The notes under the pieces are model-generated. The model saw nothing but the letters and a program-made list of their open reading frames with translations, had not been told where the DNA came from and did no database searches. 64,000 nucleotides of DNA from Alphaproteobacteria bacterium (GTDB lineage Bacteria > Pseudomonadota > Alphaproteobacteria > Bin95), in contig CBDBGH010000003.1 of NCBI GenBank assembly GCA_965205265.1, positions 4,672,001-4,736,000 on the forward strand, read 5' to 3'. Made by a program: the position numbers and the translations under genes. Of this stretch, positions 22,165-44,799 are shown one piece after another; within the stretch, counting starts at the first letter, position 1; each line of letters begins with the position of its first letter.

Positions 22165-23469
22165 CTACGGCAGAGAGTGCCCGTGACATGGCTCCCGGGC
22201 AACACGGGAATCGCCTGCGGTCGGTGCCGCCGGGGCCATCAGGGCCTCGATCCGGTCGGCGATCCGTTGGGCCGGCTCGCGCAACTGGGCGAGGGTCCAG
22301 TCGGCGGCATAGCCCTCGGTCACGTCGTTGGGCCGGGCATGGTTGACCAGTCGCTTGGTCAGCGAGGGCGGCAGCATCAGCTCGCGCTCGGCGACGGTGA
22401 TGAAGCAGTTGCGCAGCCCGTGAAACCAGAACTTCGCCCCGCCGGCCTTGCCGATGCGGGTGTAGAGATGGTGCGGATCCTGCACATGGCCGGTCGCGCT
22501 TGTGGGCGACGGGAACACCCACTCCCGAACCCAGTCGGGCAGGTCTGCGGACGCCGCCCGGCGCCGTTCGAGAATAGCCGCGAGCTGCCGGGTGACGGGA
22601 AGCTCCAGCGGAACGCCGGTCTTGGTCTCCTCGACCCGGAAGGCGAGGGCCTCGCTGTCGATCCGCTCCCAGCGCAGGGTCAACACCTCCTCGCGGCGCA
22701 TGCCGGTGTAGAGCCCGAACCAGAGCGCGTCGCGGATCGCCGGGTTGTGGACCTCGACCTCGATGCCCCGGCGCCAGCACGGCAGCACTTCCGAAGGCGC
22801 CGAGATCTTGCGCCGCGCCTTGCGGTGGAACTTGCCGCCGCCGGCAAGCCAGAGATCGACCGGATTGCGCAGTCCCTCCTGGTCGACGCAGGGCCGGCGA
22901 TAGATCGAGCGCAACAGCGACATCGCCCGGTTGGCCGGCGACCAGCCGTGGTCTGCGGTGATGCGGTTGAAGCGGGCCTCGACGTCCCGGCGGGCGATCA
23001 GGTCGAGGGGACGGGCGAGCCAGTCGCCGAGATAGCGGTTTGCCTCGTAGCGGTAGAGTTCGTCGGTGCGCTTCGACCGCTCGGGATTGGCCTTCATGTA
23101 GTCCTCGAAGGCCTCGCCGAGCGTGGGCATGCGGCGGGCCTCGGCGCGCTCCTCGGCCGGATCGTTGCCGCCGGCAACCTTGCCGAGGATCTCCTGCGCC
23201 TTCCTGCGCGCCTGGTCGACGGTGACCGCGCCGAAGCGGCCGAGCGAGACGCGCTTGTTGGGCGCCTTCCGGCCGCCGTCGCCGACGCGGTAGTTGACGA
23301 TGAAGGTCCGGGTGCCCGCCGGGTGGATGCGGACGCCGAAGCCGGTCAGCCGGTCGTCCCAGGCGATCCACGAGCGCTCGGCAGGCTGGAGCGTCTCCAC
23401 GGAGCGCTTGGTGAGTGTCGTGCGCACCCTGGCGGTGCGTTTTCCGGAAGTCGGTTGCATGGGGGGCAT
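22165..23469 (-). CDS. Tyrosine integrase with arm-binding (DUF4102-like) domain
   Basis: WDDRLTGFGVRI, YTGMRREE, HGLRN, LVNH..TEGY; start codon approximate. Confidence 0.9.
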   Translation of the reverse strand: MPPMQPTSGKRTARVRTTLTKRSVETLQPAERSWIAWDDRLTGFGVRIHPAGTRTFIVNYRVGDGGRKAPNKRVSLGRFGAVTVDQARRKAQEILGKVAGGNDPAEERAEARRMPTLGEAFEDYMKANPERSKRTDELYRYEANRYLGDWLARPLDLIARRDVEARFNRITADHGWSPANRAMSLLRSIYRRPCVDQEGLRNPVDLWLAGGGKFHRKARRKISAPSEVLPCWRRGIEVEVHNPAIRDALWFGLYTGMRREEVLTLRWERIDSEALAFRVEETKTGVPLELPVTRQLAAILERRRAASADLPDWVREWVFPSPTSATGHVQDPHHLYTRIGKAGGAKFWFHGLRNCFITVAERELMLPPSLTKRLVNHARPNDVTEGYAADWTLAQLREPAQRIADRIEALMAPAAPTAGDSRVAREPCHGHSLP

Positions 23470-23640
23470 CGTGCCACCGCGCAAGCGAAACGTCAACACT
23501 TGCGTCAACACGCGGAATCAACTTCCAGCTGTCGCCATCTGTCAGGGGTCGCGGTTGACAAACCGCCAAAGGCATGCAATACCTTGGTTTATCATACTCC
23601 AGCGCACGTCAGGCGGCGTGATGCGCAAATCTCCGCGAGA

Positions 23641-23685
<45 letters not shown>

Positions 23686-25102
23686 CCGAGACCGACATTC
23701 CCGGCCTGGGCGTGTCGGTTTCTCCTTTCCCGGCCCATTCGAGGATGGTTCCGAGGTCGCCATGGAGTGCGGCGTGCATCTCGCCGCGCTTCGCGCCGGG
23801 GGTGAGCACGATGCGCTCGATCAGCCCCCGGATGGCGGTCGCCGCCGCGCCGCGGTCCTCGGGATGGTCCAGCGCCTCGGCGAGGCGCTCGACCTTGCGG
23901 CGGTAGACGAGGGCGATGTTGGGGTGGATGTCCGGGAGGTCGGCCGGAACGGCGGCGAGGCGTTCGTTCAACGCGTCCTGGCGCGCTTCCAGCTCGCGCA
24001 GCCGGTCCACCATGCCCCGGACATAGCCACCGTCCTCGATGACCGAGATCATGGCGGCGATCTTCCTCTCGATCTCGGCGAGTTCCTTGCGGTCGCTCGC
24101 GCCCGAGGCGCGGCGCTCGCGGTTGAGCCGGTTGGTCTCTTCGGCATATGCCTTCATCGCCTCGGCGGCGGCCTTCGGCGCCATCAGCCGGTCCTTCAGC
24201 CCGGCGAGGACGCGTTCCTCGATCTCTGCGCGGCGGATGCCCCGGCCGTTGGCGCAGGACCCCGTCATGACGTGGCTGGAGCAGCCGTAGCGGTCCTGGC
24301 CGCGCATGGAACAGGGGCCGCCGCAGACGCCGCATTCGAGCAGGCCCGAGAGCAGGTGCCGGGGCCGGTGGGCGCCGTTCAGCCGGTTGGAGCGCGCGCT
24401 TTGCGTGGCCGCGATGACGGTGGCGTATTGCACCGTGATTTCGCCCTGGCGGTCCTTCACCGCCTGCCACAGTTCGTCGTCGACGATGCGGAGCTCGGGA
24501 ACCTCGGCGACGATCCACTCCTCCGGCGGGTTGATGCGCGAGACCCGCCTGCCGGTCTCCGGGTTCTTCATGAAGCGCAGCCGGTTCCACACCAGCCGGC
24601 CGATATAGAGTTCGTTGTTGATGAGGCCGGTGCCGCGCTTCGCATGGCCCCGGACGGTGGAATCGGTCCACAGCCTGCCGGACGGGCCGGGGACGGCCTC
24701 GTCGTTCAGCCGCCGCGCGATCGCGCGCGGGCTCGCGCCGGAGGCGAACTCCCGGAAGATGCGCCGGACGATCTCCGCTTCCGCCTCGTTGATCCGCCGC
24801 TCGCCCCGGATCGGCTCGCCGGCGGCGTCGACCGCCTTCACCACATCGTAGCCGTAGCAGAGCCCGCCGCCCGACTTGCCGGCCTCCACGCGGCCCCGCA
24901 GGCCCCGATGCGTCTTCGCCGCGAGATCCTTCAGGAACAGCGCGTTCATCGTGCCCTTGAACCCGACATGGAGTTCGTCGATCTCGCCCTCCGCCAGCGT
25001 CACCACCGTCACCCCGGCGAAGCGCAGGTGCTTGTAGAGCGTCGCCACGTCCGCCTGGTCGCGGCTCACCCGGTCCAGCGCCTCCGCGACCACGACCTCG
25101 AA

Positions 25103-26439
25103 GGGCCTTACAAAGATGAGTTGACGGCGTCATGCCGCCAGCATCCCTGCGTTTTCACGGATCGCAGGGGTCCGCAAGCCGGAACGCCCCTCCCCGTGCA
25201 GCAGCGCCAGTCCCCGACGCCGGATGTTGCTGCCGGCATTCGCGTCGGCATGGTCCGCATGGCCGCAGGCCGTGCACTGGAATTCGGCCCGCGAACGCCG
25301 CGAGCCGGCATCGACATGGCCGCAGGCGGCGCAGGTCCGGCTGGTATGGGCCGGGTCGACCGCGAGCAGCCGTCCCGCCTTGTAGCCGAACATGAAGCGC
25401 AGTTCCGCCCATCCCGTGGCCAGGATGACGCGGTTGAGCCCGGCCTTCTGCCGGACCCGGGCGCCCGGCTCCTCTGTCGTGCCCCGGGCGCTGCGCGTCA
25501 TGTTCCGGACCCGGAGGTCCTCGACGGCGACGGTATGGGCGGCGTCGGCGACTGTCCGCGAGACATGGTGGCGCCAGTCGCACCGCATCCCGGAAAGGCG
25601 CCGCCTCGTCTTCGCCAGACGGGCGCGGGTGCGCTCCCGGCGCCCGGAGCCGCGCTTCTGGCGCGCCAGACGCCGGGCAAGGCGCTTCGCCCTCGCCTCC
25701 AGCCGCCGCGTATCCGGGGCATGGAACAGGCGGGCTTCCGGCCCCGGACCGCTCGCCGCCACCTGGCCAGCGTTCATGTCCACCCCGATGACGCTGTCGT
25801 CATCCTCGTGGACCGCCGGCGCCGGGACCCGGTAGCAGACCACGGCGTACCACTTGCCGGCCTCGCGCTTCAGCACCGCCGAGACCGGCTCGCCATCCCC
25901 ATGCGGGTTGCCGCCCCGCCGGCGGACCGCAAGCGGGCCGAAACCCGGAAGGCGCAGGCAGGCCGCGCCGGACCCGCAGTCCGCGCCGGGCCGGGCCCGG
26001 TCCTCCAGCCTCACCCCCGAGACGAAGGAGAGGCTGTCGAACCGCCGGCGGGACCGGAACCGGGGAAAACCCGGCTTCTGGCCCGCCTTCACCCGCCGGA
26101 AGAAGCCCTTCATCGCCTCGTCCAGGCGCTTCAGCGTCCCGCGCTGCACGGCGACCGGAACGGCCGCCATCTCGGGGTCCTCCCGGCGGCACACCGTCAG
26201 GCTCTTCGCCTGGTCGATATAGGAGAGCGACCGCCCGGCCAGACGCCAGGCGTCGCAGCGTTCCTGAAGGGCGGCGTTGTACAACTGCCGCTGCGCCTCC
26301 AGAACCCGCTCCAGACGCCGCCAAACGGACCGGCGGCCCGGCAGAAGCCGGAATACCACCTGACGGTGCGTGAAGACCTCGCTCATGCGGCCGAACTGGA
26401 TACGATACACGGCAATGTCAACTTACCTTTGTAAGCCCC
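25103..26439 (-). mobile_element. Non-autonomous TnpB-only element with 23-bp TIRs and 8-bp TSD
   Basis: TIRs 25103-25125 and 26417-26439 (20/23 match); ACCTCGAA at 25095-25102 and 26440-26447. Confidence 0.9.
25130..26386 (-). CDS. tnpB: TnpB RNA-guided endonuclease
   Basis: LYNAAL, GFPRFR, RuvC GVDMN / VEDL / HADANA, CxxC..CxxC zinc finger; alternative GTG start at 26410. Confidence 0.93.
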   Translation of the reverse strand: MSEVFTHRQVVFRLLPGRRSVWRRLERVLEAQRQLYNAALQERCDAWRLAGRSLSYIDQAKSLTVCRREDPEMAAVPVAVQRGTLKRLDEAMKGFFRRVKAGQKPGFPRFRSRRRFDSLSFVSGVRLEDRARPGADCGSGAACLRLPGFGPLAVRRRGGNPHGDGEPVSAVLKREAGKWYAVVCYRVPAPAVHEDDDSVIGVDMNAGQVAASGPGPEARLFHAPDTRRLEARAKRLARRLARQKRGSGRRERTRARLAKTRRRLSGMRCDWRHHVSRTVADAAHTVAVEDLRVRNMTRSARGTTEEPGARVRQKAGLNRVILATGWAELRFMFGYKAGRLLAVDPAHTSRTCAACGHVDAGSRRSRAEFQCTACGHADHADANAGSNIRRRGLALLHGEGRSGLRTPAIRENAGMLAA

Positions 26440-26670
26440 ACCTCGAACATCCCCCGCCGCGCGTCCTCCAGCAGCGCCTGGACGCCGGGGCGCAGGATCA
26501 CGCTGTCGCCCGAGATGGCGGAGTCCCTGTAGGCGCCCGCCACCTTCCAGCCCTCGCGCGCGGCGCGCTCGCGGCAGATGCGGAACTGGTCCTCTATGGA
26601 AGCCGCCCGCTGCTGGTCGGACGAGTAGCGGGCATACAGCGCGCAGCGAAGGGGCATGATGAAGGGTCTC

Positions 26671-26889
26671 CTATCTCTCGCCGGCCTCCCCGGTCGGTGC
26701 ATTGTCGTTGGCCGCGGCGCGCCTGTCGAATTGCTCGCGCGCGATGCGCCGCCCGAGCAGCCAGGCCAGCCTCGCCACGGCGGCATCGACCCGCGCTTCC
26801 GGATCGTCTGTCCTGGCTCCCGGGCCGGGATTGTCGTTCGCCGCCGCGCCGCCCGTGGCGGCAATCCCGCGTTCCCCGCTCTCCGGCAT
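26671..26889 (-). CDS. Small hypothetical protein upstream of the serine recombinase
   Basis: 72 aa, co-oriented, LAWLLGRRIAREQF flanked by two AANDN repeats. Confidence 0.5.
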   Translation of the reverse strand: MPESGERGIAATGGAAANDNPGPGARTDDPEARVDAAVARLAWLLGRRIAREQFDRRAAANDNAPTGEAGER

Positions 26890-27072
26890 CCCCTCGCGCC
26901 TCCCGTAGCACCATGCTTCCGGGAACAGGTCTGGGTCCGCGGTCCGGCCCTGTCAAACCGGTCATGTATGGGAGTTCCCGCATCGAATCATCCCCTTGCG
27001 TGCCCTTGGCCGCCCCTGGCGCGGCATGCCGCGCCAGGGGGATGATCGACAAAAAATCGCCGGCCGCGCGAC

Positions 27073-27480
27073 TCATGATCCTTCCCGATCGAAGAGCGGA
27101 ATACCCATGGCGCGGGCGACGGCGGTCATGCGCTGGTCGTGGCTCGCGAGCGTCACCTCCTGACCGTTCTCGGCCAGATACGCGCACGACGCCAGATGCA
27201 GGGCGTCGAGGGTCCGCAATGTTAGCGGACCGGGGCCGGGAAACGCCTCCAGCGCCCGCGCCAGAACCCGCCGGCTCAGCTCCAGCAGCGCGACCCGCCC
27301 GAGCAGACCGCGGGCCGCCTCGCCATGCGACCCGGCAAGCCCGCGCCGGTGCAGCGCAGTCCATATCTCGTATTCCAGCAGCCGGCTGGAGACCAGGGTC
27401 TCGTCCCACAGCGAGACCGGCGGCTGTTGATCCTCGGTGAGGAGATGCGCAAGCGCGACCGACGTGTCGAGATAGATCAC
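27073..27480 (-). CDS. vapC: PIN-domain toxin
   Basis: MIYLDTS, LRTLDALHLAS. Confidence 0.9.
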   Translation of the reverse strand: MIYLDTSVALAHLLTEDQQPPVSLWDETLVSSRLLEYEIWTALHRRGLAGSHGEAARGLLGRVALLELSRRVLARALEAFPGPGPLTLRTLDALHLASCAYLAENGQEVTLASHDQRMTAVARAMGIPLFDREGS

Positions 27481-27770
27481 CGGTCGCGCCGGCTTTCGTC
27501 CAGCTCCGCCAGAACATCGTCCAACATGGCGACCGGCGGCGGCTTCGGCGGCATCCCCGAGCCGGACAGCGCCGGCGGCGCGAGAACGCCGGAGCGCACC
27601 GCGTCGGCCAGGAAGGCGTCGGCGAGGATCGGGCTCCGGGATTCCCTCAGCGGGCCGAGTTCCGCCACGACCTGATCGCGGTCGGTCACGAGAATCGTTT
27701 CGCCGGACGCCGCAAGCCGGACATATTCGCTCAGCTTGCTGTTCAGAACCTTGATCCCGACCGATCTCAT
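27477..27770 (-). CDS. Phd/YefM-type antitoxin
   Basis: MRSVGIKVLNSKLSEYVRLAASGETILVTDR; overlaps the toxin start. Confidence 0.85.
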   Translation of the reverse strand: MRSVGIKVLNSKLSEYVRLAASGETILVTDRDQVVAELGPLRESRSPILADAFLADAVRSGVLAPPALSGSGMPPKPPPVAMLDDVLAELDESRRDR

Positions 27771-42256: not shown

Positions 42257-44799
42257 GCGGGATCATGGCCCGGCTCGCGGACCTGTTCGAGACCCCGGCG
42301 GCGCTGGTCGATCTCCTGCCCTGGCGCGCCTTCGACGAGCGCAGCGAACTCCATGTCAATGCGGCCTCGGTGGGCTTCGTGCTGGAGGTCCCGCCCTTCG
42401 CCGGCATCGACGCCGAGACCCTGGGGGCGCTCGCCGGCACGCTGGCCGACGCCGCCCCGGAGCGCTGCACGGTCCAGGCGATCCACTGGGCGAGCCCGCG
42501 CTTCGGCGCGGCGCTCGACGACTGGGCCGGGCCGCGCCGAAGCGCCGGTCCGGTGCAGGCCGGCATGGCGCGCCGCAGGCGCCGCCTCTTCGACGGCGCC
42601 GGCTGGCGTCCGCTGCATCCGGGCGGCGCGCCCTTCACCCTGTCGGACTACCGGGTCTTCGTGACCGCCTGCCTGGCGGGACCGCCCGGCCCGGCGTCCG
42701 AGACCGCGCTTTCGGCCTTCCGCCGGGCGCTCGAAGGCACGCTGGCCTCGGCCGGGGCGAGCGCACGCCGGCTCGGCCCCGACGGCCTGCTCTCGCTCGC
42801 CGCCGAACTGGCCGCGCCGCAGACCGCGCCCCGGCCCGAGGCCGGAACCCCCACCCCGCTGCACCGCCCGCAGCGGCGCTGGTCGCCGCGGGACCCGCTC
42901 CACCTGCAATGCGCCGCGCCCGGCCGCGCACTCTCCGTCCATCCCACCGGGCTGGTCTTCCACGACCCGGACGGGAGCGACGTGGCGGTGCGGGCGCTCA
43001 CGGCGCTGGCCTTCCCGGAGGCCTGGCCGGGCTGGCGCGGCAATGCGCTGATCGGCGACTTCCACCGCGACTTCCTCCAGCCCGGCTGTCCGGTGCTGAC
43101 CTGTCTCACGATCATGACCGGCGAGGCCGCCGACGGCGAGCGGGCGTTCCTGAAGAGCGCCCGCGCCACCCAACAGGCCGGCACCGGCCTTGCCCGGTAT
43201 CTTCCGGGCCTGCCGGAGAAGGCGCGCGACTGGCAGTTCGTCACCGAACGCCTCAAGGACGGCGAGCGGCTGATCCGGGCCTGCTACACGGCCTGCGTCT
43301 ACGTGCCGCTGGAGGCCATCGATGCGGCAGAACAGGCGGTGCGCGCGATCTATCACGGCCAGGGCTGGCGCATGGCGGCGGAACGCTACATGCAGCTGCC
43401 CTCCTGGCTCGCCTGTCTGCCGATGGTTCCGGCCGGAGGCCTCGACGCCGACCTCGTCCGCATGGGGCGGATGAAGACCCTGCTGACATCCTCGGCGATC
43501 AACCTTGCGCCCATCCATGGCGAGTGGCGGGGCCAGGCGCCGGACCCGGACAGCCCGCCGGTCCTGTTCCTGATCGGGCGCCGCGGCCAGCCGGCCGGCT
43601 GGTCGCCCTTCGCCAACGAGGCCGGCAACTACAACGTCGCCGTCACCGGCAAGTCCGGGTCGGGCAAGTCGGTGCTGATGCAGGAGCTGGTGACCGGGCT
43701 GATCGGCGCCGGCGGCGAGGCGGTGGTGATCGACGACGGGCGCTCGTTCCAGCACACGGCGGAAGCGATGGACGGCGCCTTCATCGCCTTCGGCAAGGAC
43801 CCGGCCTGCCTCAACCCCTTCGCCATGATCGATGCCGCCACGGCGTCCCATGACGGCGACTACCGCGAGGAGTGCTTCGCCATGCTGGCCGGGGTCATCG
43901 GTCGCATGTGTCGGCGGCGCGGCGGCATCGACGACATCGAGGCGGCGCTGATCGCCGAAGCCGTCGCGGCGGCTTGGGACGAGGCCGGCAACGCCGCCGA
44001 TCTCGGCGCGGTCAGGAAGAACCTCGAGGCCCGCGGCGTCCGCCGGGCGAAGGACATGGCGACCGCGCTCGGCCCCTGGTGCCCGGGCGGGCCGATGGGA
44101 AGGCTGTTCGCGGGAAGCGACGTCCCCGATCTGGAGAACGCGCTCACGGTGTTCGAACTCGCCGAACTCAAGGGGCGCGGCGACGTCCAGGCCGTCGTGC
44201 TGATGCTGGTGGTCTTCCTCGCGACGCAACGCATGTATCACGGCCCCCGCACGCGGGCGAAGGCCATCGTCATCGACGAGGCCTGGGACCTGCTCTCCGG
44301 CGAGGACTCCAGGGCGTTCCTCGAAGGCGCGGCCAGACGCGCCAGAAAATACCGGGGTTCGCTGATTACCGGCACCCAGTCGGTCAACGACTACTACGCC
44401 AACCCGGCGGCCCGCGCCGCCTGGGAGAACTCGGACTGGGTGATCTTCCTCGCCCAGAAGGACGAATCGGTCGAACTGCTGAAGTCCGAGAAGCGCATCC
44501 ACTGCGATCCCGGCATGGAGAGGGCGCTCAAGAGCCTGACCACGGCCGACGGGAGATACGCCGAACTGGTGCTGCACGGCCCGGACGGCTGGCGGGTGGC
44601 GCGCCTGGTGCTCGATCCGTGGTCGGTGGCGCTGTTCTCCTCGCGCGGCCCCGCCTTCGCGGCGGTCGAGCGGCTCAAGGCCGAGGGGCTGACGACGATC
44701 GAGGCCATCGACCGGCTGGCTGGCGGTGACGGAACCGCGGGCGCCGGAACCGGGCAATCCGGACCATCGCAAACGACAGCAACGGGAGAGACTGCATGA
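42253..44799 (+). CDS. traC: TraC ATPase (VirB4-like)
   Basis: NYNVAVTGKSGSGKS, IDEAW, RRARKY. Confidence 0.93.
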   Translation: MSGIMARLADLFETPAALVDLLPWRAFDERSELHVNAASVGFVLEVPPFAGIDAETLGALAGTLADAAPERCTVQAIHWASPRFGAALDDWAGPRRSAGPVQAGMARRRRRLFDGAGWRPLHPGGAPFTLSDYRVFVTACLAGPPGPASETALSAFRRALEGTLASAGASARRLGPDGLLSLAAELAAPQTAPRPEAGTPTPLHRPQRRWSPRDPLHLQCAAPGRALSVHPTGLVFHDPDGSDVAVRALTALAFPEAWPGWRGNALIGDFHRDFLQPGCPVLTCLTIMTGEAADGERAFLKSARATQQAGTGLARYLPGLPEKARDWQFVTERLKDGERLIRACYTACVYVPLEAIDAAEQAVRAIYHGQGWRMAAERYMQLPSWLACLPMVPAGGLDADLVRMGRMKTLLTSSAINLAPIHGEWRGQAPDPDSPPVLFLIGRRGQPAGWSPFANEAGNYNVAVTGKSGSGKSVLMQELVTGLIGAGGEAVVIDDGRSFQHTAEAMDGAFIAFGKDPACLNPFAMIDAATASHDGDYREECFAMLAGVIGRMCRRRGGIDDIEAALIAEAVAAAWDEAGNAADLGAVRKNLEARGVRRAKDMATALGPWCPGGPMGRLFAGSDVPDLENALTVFELAELKGRGDVQAVVLMLVVFLATQRMYHGPRTRAKAIVIDEAWDLLSGEDSRAFLEGAARRARKYRGSLITGTQSVNDYYANPAARAAWENSDWVIFLAQKDESVELLKSEKRIHCDPGMERALKSLTTADGRYAELVLHGPDGWRVARLVLDPWSVALFSSRGPAFAAVERLKAEGLTTIEAIDRLAGGDGTAGAGTGQSGPSQTTATGETA

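Follow-up and report, generated by a model that had tools for sequence, protein, structure and literature searches.

A tnpB gene in a non-autonomous IS1595-type element and a predicted omega-RNA that takes in the right terminal inverted repeat

The closest described relative of the system reported here is the TnpB/omega-RNA pair of ISDra2, an IS200/IS605 element (PDB 8H1J, 8EXA). According to the relevant passages of PMC10097598, its RNA shares sequence with both the 3' end of tnpB and the right end of the element, comprises a scaffold of ~116-118 nt followed by a guide taken from the flank, and forms a pseudoknot between its last ~6 nt and a site ~105-110 nt upstream. We analyzed a 64,000-nucleotide stretch of DNA (hereafter the window) from an Alphaproteobacteria bacterium (lineage Bin95; assembly GCA_965205265.1, contig CBDBGH010000003.1, here contig 3, positions 4,672,001 to 4,736,000). 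It holds a 1337-bp element at window positions 25103-26439 with 23-bp terminal inverted repeats (TIRs), an 8-bp target site duplication (TSD) and a single gene, an intact tnpB. All element coordinates below refer to the minus strand of the window.

The layout and distances predicted for this element resemble those of ISDra2, and the proteins are homologous over their full length with conserved RuvC residues. Unlike ISDra2, which has hairpin ends and no TSD, the element is bounded by TIRs and an 8-bp TSD; it resides in a genome without Y1 TnpA, and the first 8 bases of its predicted guide are the duplicated target. The base that recurs upstream is a single G, whereas ISDra2 uses a 5-nt motif equal to the transposase target (TTGAT).

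TnpBs linked to DDE transposases and bearing inverted terminal repeats, as well as solo TnpBs that are apparently mobilised in trans, have been described in the pertinent sections of Altae-Tran et al. (2023, PNAS, PMC10691335), and a 2026 review, in its passage on such pairings, lists ISL2, IS630 and IS1031 and calls the rarity of DDE pairings in prokaryotes unexplained (PMC13565253). The main text of PMC10691335 names IS630 and contains no mention of IS1595, although the present clade may still be one of its branches, and the corresponding passages of both sources contain no description of a paired TIR scaffold, of a guide seeded by a TSD or of a bias in the flanking bases. According to the sections on Fanzor RNAs, these guide RNAs share sequence with the right inverted repeat or TIR, and in some cases the target-adjacent motif (TAM) agrees with the insertion site (Jiang et al., 2023, Sci Adv, PMC10530073). 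Those systems are eukaryotic or viral and, in the same sections, their RNA reaches further past the open reading frame (ORF), whereas here 4 nt separate stop codon and TIR and the scaffold is nearly all coding.

Judging by titles and abstracts, none of the papers retrieved for TnpB together with IS1595 concerns this link. We take IS1595-family insertion sequences (ISs), together with their passenger-carrying and transposase-less derivatives, to generate 8-bp TSDs and to carry a passenger gene between their ends, as this element does. The TIRs start with GGGG, as do those of the family members in this genome that encode a transposase; unlike these, the element has no internal transposase gene, and its passenger is an RNA-guided nuclease whose predicted RNA uses the TIR. 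This kind of system is already known; what appears to be new is the IS1595 link, a scaffold that takes in the complete TIR in paired form, a guide seeded by the TSD, and a G on one side only.

A tnpB element with IS1595-type ends

The left TIR (26417-26439, GGGGCTTACAAAGGTAAGTTGAC) and the right TIR (25103-25125, RNA sense GTCAACTCATCTTTGTAAGGCCC) are imperfect inverse copies of one another that agree at 20 of 23 positions, and the TSD TTCGAGGT flanks them at 26440-26447 and 25095-25102. The match between the seven full genomic copies breaks off precisely at 25103 and 26439. These ends are confirmed by a DNA contig from run X6 that joins 25094 to 26440 and skips 1345 bases, with 8 ambiguous bases; this contig is an empty allele with one TSD copy. 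Contigs from a second run, X2, compared with window 24900-26600, break exactly at 25103 and 26439. Their depth is 700-2500 over the element versus 10-77 in the flanks (25-100x), a measure of contig depth and not of copy number, as expected for an organism with many copies of the element.

The insertion splits a large serine recombinase gene into a 5' part (26448-26655) and a 3' part (23642-25102), which lies outside the element. The downstream piece matches Pfam Recombinase (4.1e-23), Zn_ribbon_recom and only profile positions 67-144 of Resolvase. Because only the last part of the resolvase domain lies downstream, and because intact paralogues read through the site, the recombinase is the target of the element and not its partner. 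A role as an IS607-type partner was likewise ruled out, as the gene is split and the other six copies lie in unrelated flanks.

The tnpB coding sequence occupies 25130-26386 (stop codon 25132-25130). Its frame is open back to a GTG at 26410, and the ATG at 26386 is the likely start because residue 15 of the longer frame is where the alignment to the solved TnpB chains begins. Two Pfam families, OrfB_IS605 (6.7e-14) and Cas12f1-like_TNB (9.6e-14), match the protein, which aligns over its full length with the ISDra2 TnpB chains (E = 3e-25, query residues 15-402). Across 25 aligned homologues, D211 and E297 never vary and D389 is present in at least 90%, giving the D-E-D set of RuvC residues. Among the frames scanned, tnpB is the only gene in the 1337 bp with a protein-family match; the other listed frames overlap it. 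A scan of 24950-26600 found no sigma-70 promoter.

In the genome, seven full copies (99.85-100% identity) and one 518-bp fragment were found; six of the seven have perfect 8-bp TSDs, and their flanks are unrelated. The genome (98.98% completeness) has no match to Y1 TnpA, a search in which control genomes do match. Elements of the IS200/IS605 group have hairpin ends and a Y1 HUH TnpA and lack TIRs and TSDs, and IS607 elements encode an internal serine-recombinase TnpA, likewise without TIRs or TSDs; the tnpB element, with TIRs and a TSD and without Y1_Tnp or an internal recombinase, fits neither. Its 8-bp TSD and its TIRs, similar to those of transposase-encoding members, are those of a non-autonomous IS1595 element, and the 1337 bp contain no transposase gene as an autonomous member would.

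Seven IS1595-family DDE transposase genes are present in the genome, all outside the tnpB element. One lies in a 2840-bp element (contig 3: 1919671-1922510) with 23-bp TIRs and an 8-bp TSD, and its TIR agrees with the right TIR of the tnpB element at 20 of 23 positions and with the left at 19 of 23, counted by eye. Given the TIR similarity, the TSD length and the recent gain in copy number, the tnpB element is best read as a non-autonomous IS1595-type element that was probably moved in trans by an IS1595 transposase. Co-occurrence is uninformative in this respect: IS1595 transposases are found in 4/4 TnpB-bearing genomes of the taxonomic family, but also in 16/16 other genomes of the genus that were searched.

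Homologues at 34-78% protein identity have comparable TIRs (GGG[G/A][A/C]TTA...) and 8-bp AT-rich TSDs. They derive from a genus-mate and from metagenome-assembled genomes (MAGs) labelled Thalassobaculaceae, Paracoccaceae, Rhodothermales, Pseudomonadales and others, a distribution which indicates that the association of TnpB with IS1595-type TIRs is old. In actinobacterial homologues at ~37% identity no TIR pair was found.

A conserved RNA fold across the gene end and the right TIR

The predicted omega-RNA scaffold, supported by covariation and by a match to a covariance model, comprises 118 nt (25103-25220). Its conserved fold consists of H1 (25220-25216/25208-25204), H2 (25198-25194/25160-25156), H2b (25190-25187/25170-25167) and H3 (25183-25180/25174-25171). 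Two further helices draw on the TIR: the 3' strand of H5 (25149-25142/25118-25111) is the middle of the TIR, and that of H4 (25140-25134/25128-25122), a 7-bp hairpin straddling the end of the ORF, is the inner TIR. A predicted pseudoknot (25214-25209/25108-25103) joins the loop of H1 to the last 6 nt of the TIR. Four of the helices came from RNAalifold applied to 23 right ends, and three further pairings were added by inspection.

In a MAFFT alignment of the 23 right ends, 92.8% of pair cells can pair, compared with 80.1% after shuffling (0/500 shuffles as high), and double-sided changes occur in 81 cells where 24.2 are expected; controls with slid partners pair at 34-47%. A covariance model built from this alignment hits the window at 25233-25103 with 119.6 bits and yields 91 matches at E up to 0.01 among the 96 sources searched. 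Fifty-nine sequences aligned to the model pair at 93.7% versus 79.0%, with double changes in 255 cells versus 66.8. The G-U pairs of the helices are compatible with the tnpB-sense strand only.

In H5, each of the five pairs that were counted has changed on either side in the two alignments alike, and the middle of the TIR differs by sublineage (...CTTTCT..., ...ATCGAT..., ...GTATAT...), with the upstream strand changing to match each time. An alignment-free test gave the same picture: the upstream segment pairs with its own TIR at -8.05 kcal/mol and with the TIRs of other elements at -4.28 kcal/mol (n=23; 0/10,000 permutations as low). Relatedness among the elements inflates the duplex and covariation figures, to which several distinct TIR variants contribute.

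The pseudoknot is suggestive. The last 6 nt of the TIR read AGUCCC in most close relatives (AGGCCC in this copy) and are complementary to the H1 loop GGGACU; 88% of cells pair, and a few compensated variants were seen by eye (L034, L044, L048 and L075). In coordinates counted back from the element boundary, H1 spans -118 to -102 and its loop, at -112 to -107, faces -6 to -1. The cryo-electron microscopy structure of ISDra2 has a 116-nt scaffold in which a pseudoknot of -6 to -2 with -102 to -106 immediately precedes a 16-nt guide, as reported in the structural passages of PMC10097598. By this comparison the locus has what marks an OMEGA RNA, namely a structured RNA across the 3' end of the gene and the right end of the element and a guide-adjacent pseudoknot, the latter less well supported than the nested helices.

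Taken together, covariation and the analogy with ISDra2 make it probable that the right TIR belongs to the scaffold and that the element boundary marks the start of the guide. The start at the first base past the TIR would follow from a TIR that is paired to its end and from a geometry like that of ISDra2, if the architecture is homologous. The right TIR thus probably doubles as the end of the transposon and the 3' portion of the scaffold.

Several results weigh against this scaffold or soften it. Folding of the single sequence was not better than chance (z = -1.23 and -0.94 against shuffles), and the 59-sequence alignment was fitted to the nested helices and so leans towards them. The pseudoknot consists mostly of invariant G-C pairs with a compensatory change at only 1/6 pairs, and in many relatives it needs a one-base bulge or has a U-U mismatch. 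One RNA library (0.04 share of words) and one run guessed to be RNA match, solely as contigs, the recombinase gene in the flanks and leave the element uncovered, yet this is uninformative on expression of the element. A permissive Rfam search of 24000-27500 returned nothing relevant; its best match, LAGLIDADG-2 inside the ORF, reached 29.7 bits, where the gathering score is 94.9, and was rejected.

A preliminary description of the locus, made from the sequence alone, had argued that the omega-RNA must run into the right TIR, and had proposed a covariance model across homologues as a check; the model built here yields a conserved RNA that includes the whole TIR, with helices or the pseudoknot in its inner, middle and outer parts. 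The 4 bp noted there between tnpB stop and TIR are indeed present (25129-25126). Both pairings pointed out at the 3' end of the ORF exist in the sequence, but they fare differently: CACGG/CCGTG (H2) is conserved and covaries (97.4% of cells paired), whereas CCCTGCG/CGCAGGG is specific to this copy (48.4% paired versus 49.4% shuffled; 357/500 shuffles at least as high). That a canonical IS605 right-end hairpin is lacking is correct insofar as the element has TIRs, a TSD and no Y1 TnpA, yet a 7-bp hairpin does exist at 25140-25122.

Among the actinobacterial relatives without TIRs (~37% identity), L076, L080-L092, L094-L097, L099, L102, L103 and L105 match the covariance model, and the match ends in ...GGAATCCCC. 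In most of these loci the sequence beyond is a nearly constant, hairpin-forming stretch of ~20 nt (CGCCTTCAGGCGGGGGAGGA or close variants), which may act as a fixed guide or may be a hairpin preferred as target.

The base upstream of the duplication and the predicted guide

The base immediately 5' of the left TSD (window position 26448 in this copy) is a G in 25/26 insertions of a first set. An independent scan, blind to that base, found G at -1 in 28/30 candidate loci, or 26/27 when three loci with repeats foreign to the family are removed, and among loci whose right end was set by the covariance model the count is 23/24. Pooling family-type loci with the six TSD-bearing copies of this genome gives 31/33. 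The bias is one-sided: the mirror C after the right TSD occurs in 7/30 loci of the independent scan and in 9/33 of the pooled set (Fisher p = 2.5e-8 versus G in 31/33). A search for a longer motif at -2 to -12 found no other enriched flank position. The right junction of the element itself always has a C where the empty site has the G, and the empty site would for this reason be distinguishable from the occupied one.

The predicted guide covers 25083-25102 and, by the geometry of the scaffold, would consist of the TSD and 12 nt of flank, TTCGAGGTCGTGGTCGCGGA; a 16-nt guide, TTCGAGGTCGTGGTCG(CGGA), would end at 25087. With its 8-nt TSD and the next 8-12 nt of flank (TTCGAGGTCGTGGTCG...), such a guide matches the uninterrupted, empty site. 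Intact recombinase paralogues at contig 3: 3441028 and 3558941 present exactly this predicted target. Both have GGGATG upstream, they are identical to the predicted guide region over 26 nt in one and 49 nt in the other, and their flanks are 90-96% identical to the window locus over 0.6-2.9 kb.

The preliminary description had offered two alternative guides. The first, with the TIR in the scaffold and a guide made of TSD plus flank, gains support here, as its distances agree with those of ISDra2. The TAM proposed with it, ..GGATG, held in part: the comparison of bases upstream of the TSDs, also suggested there, recovered the final G as a recurrent, one-sided base, and the rest of the motif does not recur. 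The second guide, and with it the choice between two, is not supported, since a TIR taken up by scaffold pairing as far as its last nucleotide is not free to act as the guide too.

We give the reading of G at -1 as a one-base TAM an even chance. Two of the 33 insertions lack the G, and 34 of 58 RNA-bearing relatives have no recognisable TSD pair. In 31 of those 34, 17 left ends were found, with G in only 11 (two of the six left ends that lack it look, by eye, like one-base boundary shifts). A single base would, moreover, be unusually short for a TnpB TAM. The control IS of a genus-mate described below, which reads flanking bases strictly and lacks TnpB, also tells against this reading, and both perfect paralogue targets are uncut, unoccupied and unconverted, which speaks against efficient cutting and strong TnpB activity. 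Low expression, a TAM stricter than G, a very recent insertion or absence of cleavage are possible reasons for the intact targets. We rate cleavage of empty sites in this genome as less probable than the role of the G.

Two explanations would dispense with the TIR as guide-bearing scaffold. In the second guide of the preliminary description, GTCAA(C) is the end of the scaffold, and a constant guide against related transposon ends is formed by the outer 17 nt of the TIR. This stretch is about guide-sized, and over its first 12 nt it does not differ from the TIR of the element at contig 3: 1919671 that carries a transposase. It would, however, match its own template as well and leaves the G 5' of the left TSD unaccounted for, while the middle of the TIR covaries with the upstream segment (5/5 pairs), cognate duplexes are stronger than non-cognate ones, and the last 6 nt face the H1 loop at the ISDra2 pseudoknot distance; we consider it very improbable. 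Alternatively, the fold may be real and serve as a 3' stabiliser or terminator of the tnpB mRNA, or consist of subterminal transposase-binding repeats, TnpB being an idle or otherwise-used passenger. H4 with the following U-rich run is indeed the only terminator-like site in a scan (1 versus 0.5 expected), the subterminal sequence is repeated at both ends in some relatives (L027, L039, L052), the RNA libraries do not cover the element, and two perfect targets persist in the genome. Yet variation in the middle of the TIR among relatives means that the U-rich tail is not conserved, the G-U pairs suit one strand only, helix order and pseudoknot distance agree with the solved ISDra2 omega-RNA, TIR-less actinobacterial relatives fit the same RNA model down to its ...GGAATCCCC end, and the catalytic residues are conserved, all of which leaves this account improbable.

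A third explanation keeps scaffold and guide as proposed and assigns the G to a target preference of the mobilising transposase, perhaps tied to unequal TIR tips, which in TnpB elements often read GGGG on the left and GGGA or GGGC on the right. IS1595-family transposases can read bases outside the TSD: in the genus-mate genome G016 a TnpB-less IS1595-family IS of ~1026 bp (L188-L203; TIR tip CCTGCTTATC) inserts at CA-N8-TG, with A before the TSD in 14/14 and T after it in 12/14 insertions. These insertions were defined by comparing copies, and the TIR tips differ from those of the tnpB elements. That preference is strict and mirror-symmetric, whereas TnpB elements have no right-side preference (C in 7/30), and the one-sidedness of the G argues against a transposase origin. 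Eighteen TnpB-less elements in this genome that share the TIR type, several of them with one target sequence in common, have left G in 10/18 and mirror C in 4/18. The right junction with its constant C, where the empty site has G, is also what self-avoidance by a guided nuclease needs. A transposase preference thus appears rather unlikely as the source of the G, though far less so than the two accounts above.

In the mechanism that we propose, the 3' end of tnpB and the omega-RNA share a non-autonomous IS1595-family element that would be moved in trans by a DDE transposase whose gene lies elsewhere in the genome. The RNA scaffold would be formed by the final ~118 nt of the element, so that the right TIR serves both as DNA site for the transposase and as 3' third of the scaffold: its inner bases would close H4, its middle would pair with the upstream segment in H5, and its last 6 nt would pair with the loop of the first hairpin in a pseudoknot that in ISDra2 TnpB immediately precedes the guide. 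In the empty site, the protospacer is preceded by the base 5' of the TSD; nearly all insertions have G there, and this G would act as the TAM. We infer that the RNA is produced with the predicted guide start and that its most likely use would be cutting of empty or precisely excised alleles, after which recombination with an occupied copy would keep or spread the element.

More broadly, we tentatively propose, as something somewhat short of an even chance, that a widespread TnpB lineage, encountered in this analysis mostly in marine and sponge-associated MAGs of several phyla, was taken over by IS1595-type transposons, with the TIR recruited as the 3' third of the scaffold, a guide seeded by the TSD, a G-only TAM, and a nuclease that selects which insertions of a cut-and-paste transposon are kept and with what orientation. 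Read as its reverse complement, the actinobacterial RNA end GGAATCCCC gives GGGGATT, the tip of those IS1595 elements in this genome that encode a transposase, and an ancestral RNA tail ...AAUCCCC may have pre-adapted the right end for capture by IS1595. If true, the takeover of this lineage would represent an RNA-guided drive acting on a DDE transposon in bacteria. The accepted role of TnpB, restoring scarlessly excised IS605 and IS607 elements, is not obviously transferable to TSD-making DDE transposons, and the locus offers a concrete layout for a DDE/TnpB pairing, in which one sequence would be both transposase site and scaffold, the guide would be seeded by the TSD and the flank base is specific for orientation. 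The two perfect, uncut targets in the same genome constitute a natural experiment, and a compact TnpB with a one-base TAM would be of interest to genome editing if the TAM reading holds.

Related transposons and neighbouring sequences

The full copy without a TSD lies at contig 3: 4855744-4857080, ~119-121 kb past the end of the window, and is flanked by differing octamers. A 518-bp left-end fragment is found 6 kb from it (4849554-4850072), which suggests recombination or rearrangement between copies.

Beside the recombinase gene, window 23640-23700 resembles the 3' part of a tRNA gene (...GGTTCAAATCCTGCCCCCGCAACCACC); ARAGORN reported no tRNA in 23300-23900, and the sequence may be an attachment-site remnant.

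Contig 3 also carries IS1595-family elements with their own transposase at 2077504-2080339 and 2716265-2719100 (2836 bp each; L186) and at 3938753-3942998 (4246 bp; L187). These have TIRs and perfect 8-bp TSDs at their boundaries and restriction-modification passengers, which by Pfam are a D12-class adenine methyltransferase in one type and a DNA methylase with an XcyI-like endonuclease in the other.

The TIR type related to that of the tnpB element also bounds several larger elements and a family of 190-250-bp repeat elements in the genome, examples of which, with related TIRs and 8-bp TSDs, lie on contig 3 at 42319-42552, 980248-980495 and 1205672-1205919. These short elements (miniature inverted-repeat transposable elements) were considered as stand-alone guide RNAs and rejected, as they have no similarity to the scaffold visible by eye beyond the TIR. 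Several of them occupy one octamer, TCATGTTT, facing one way or the other, a pattern suggestive of a hotspot or of nesting inside another repeat.

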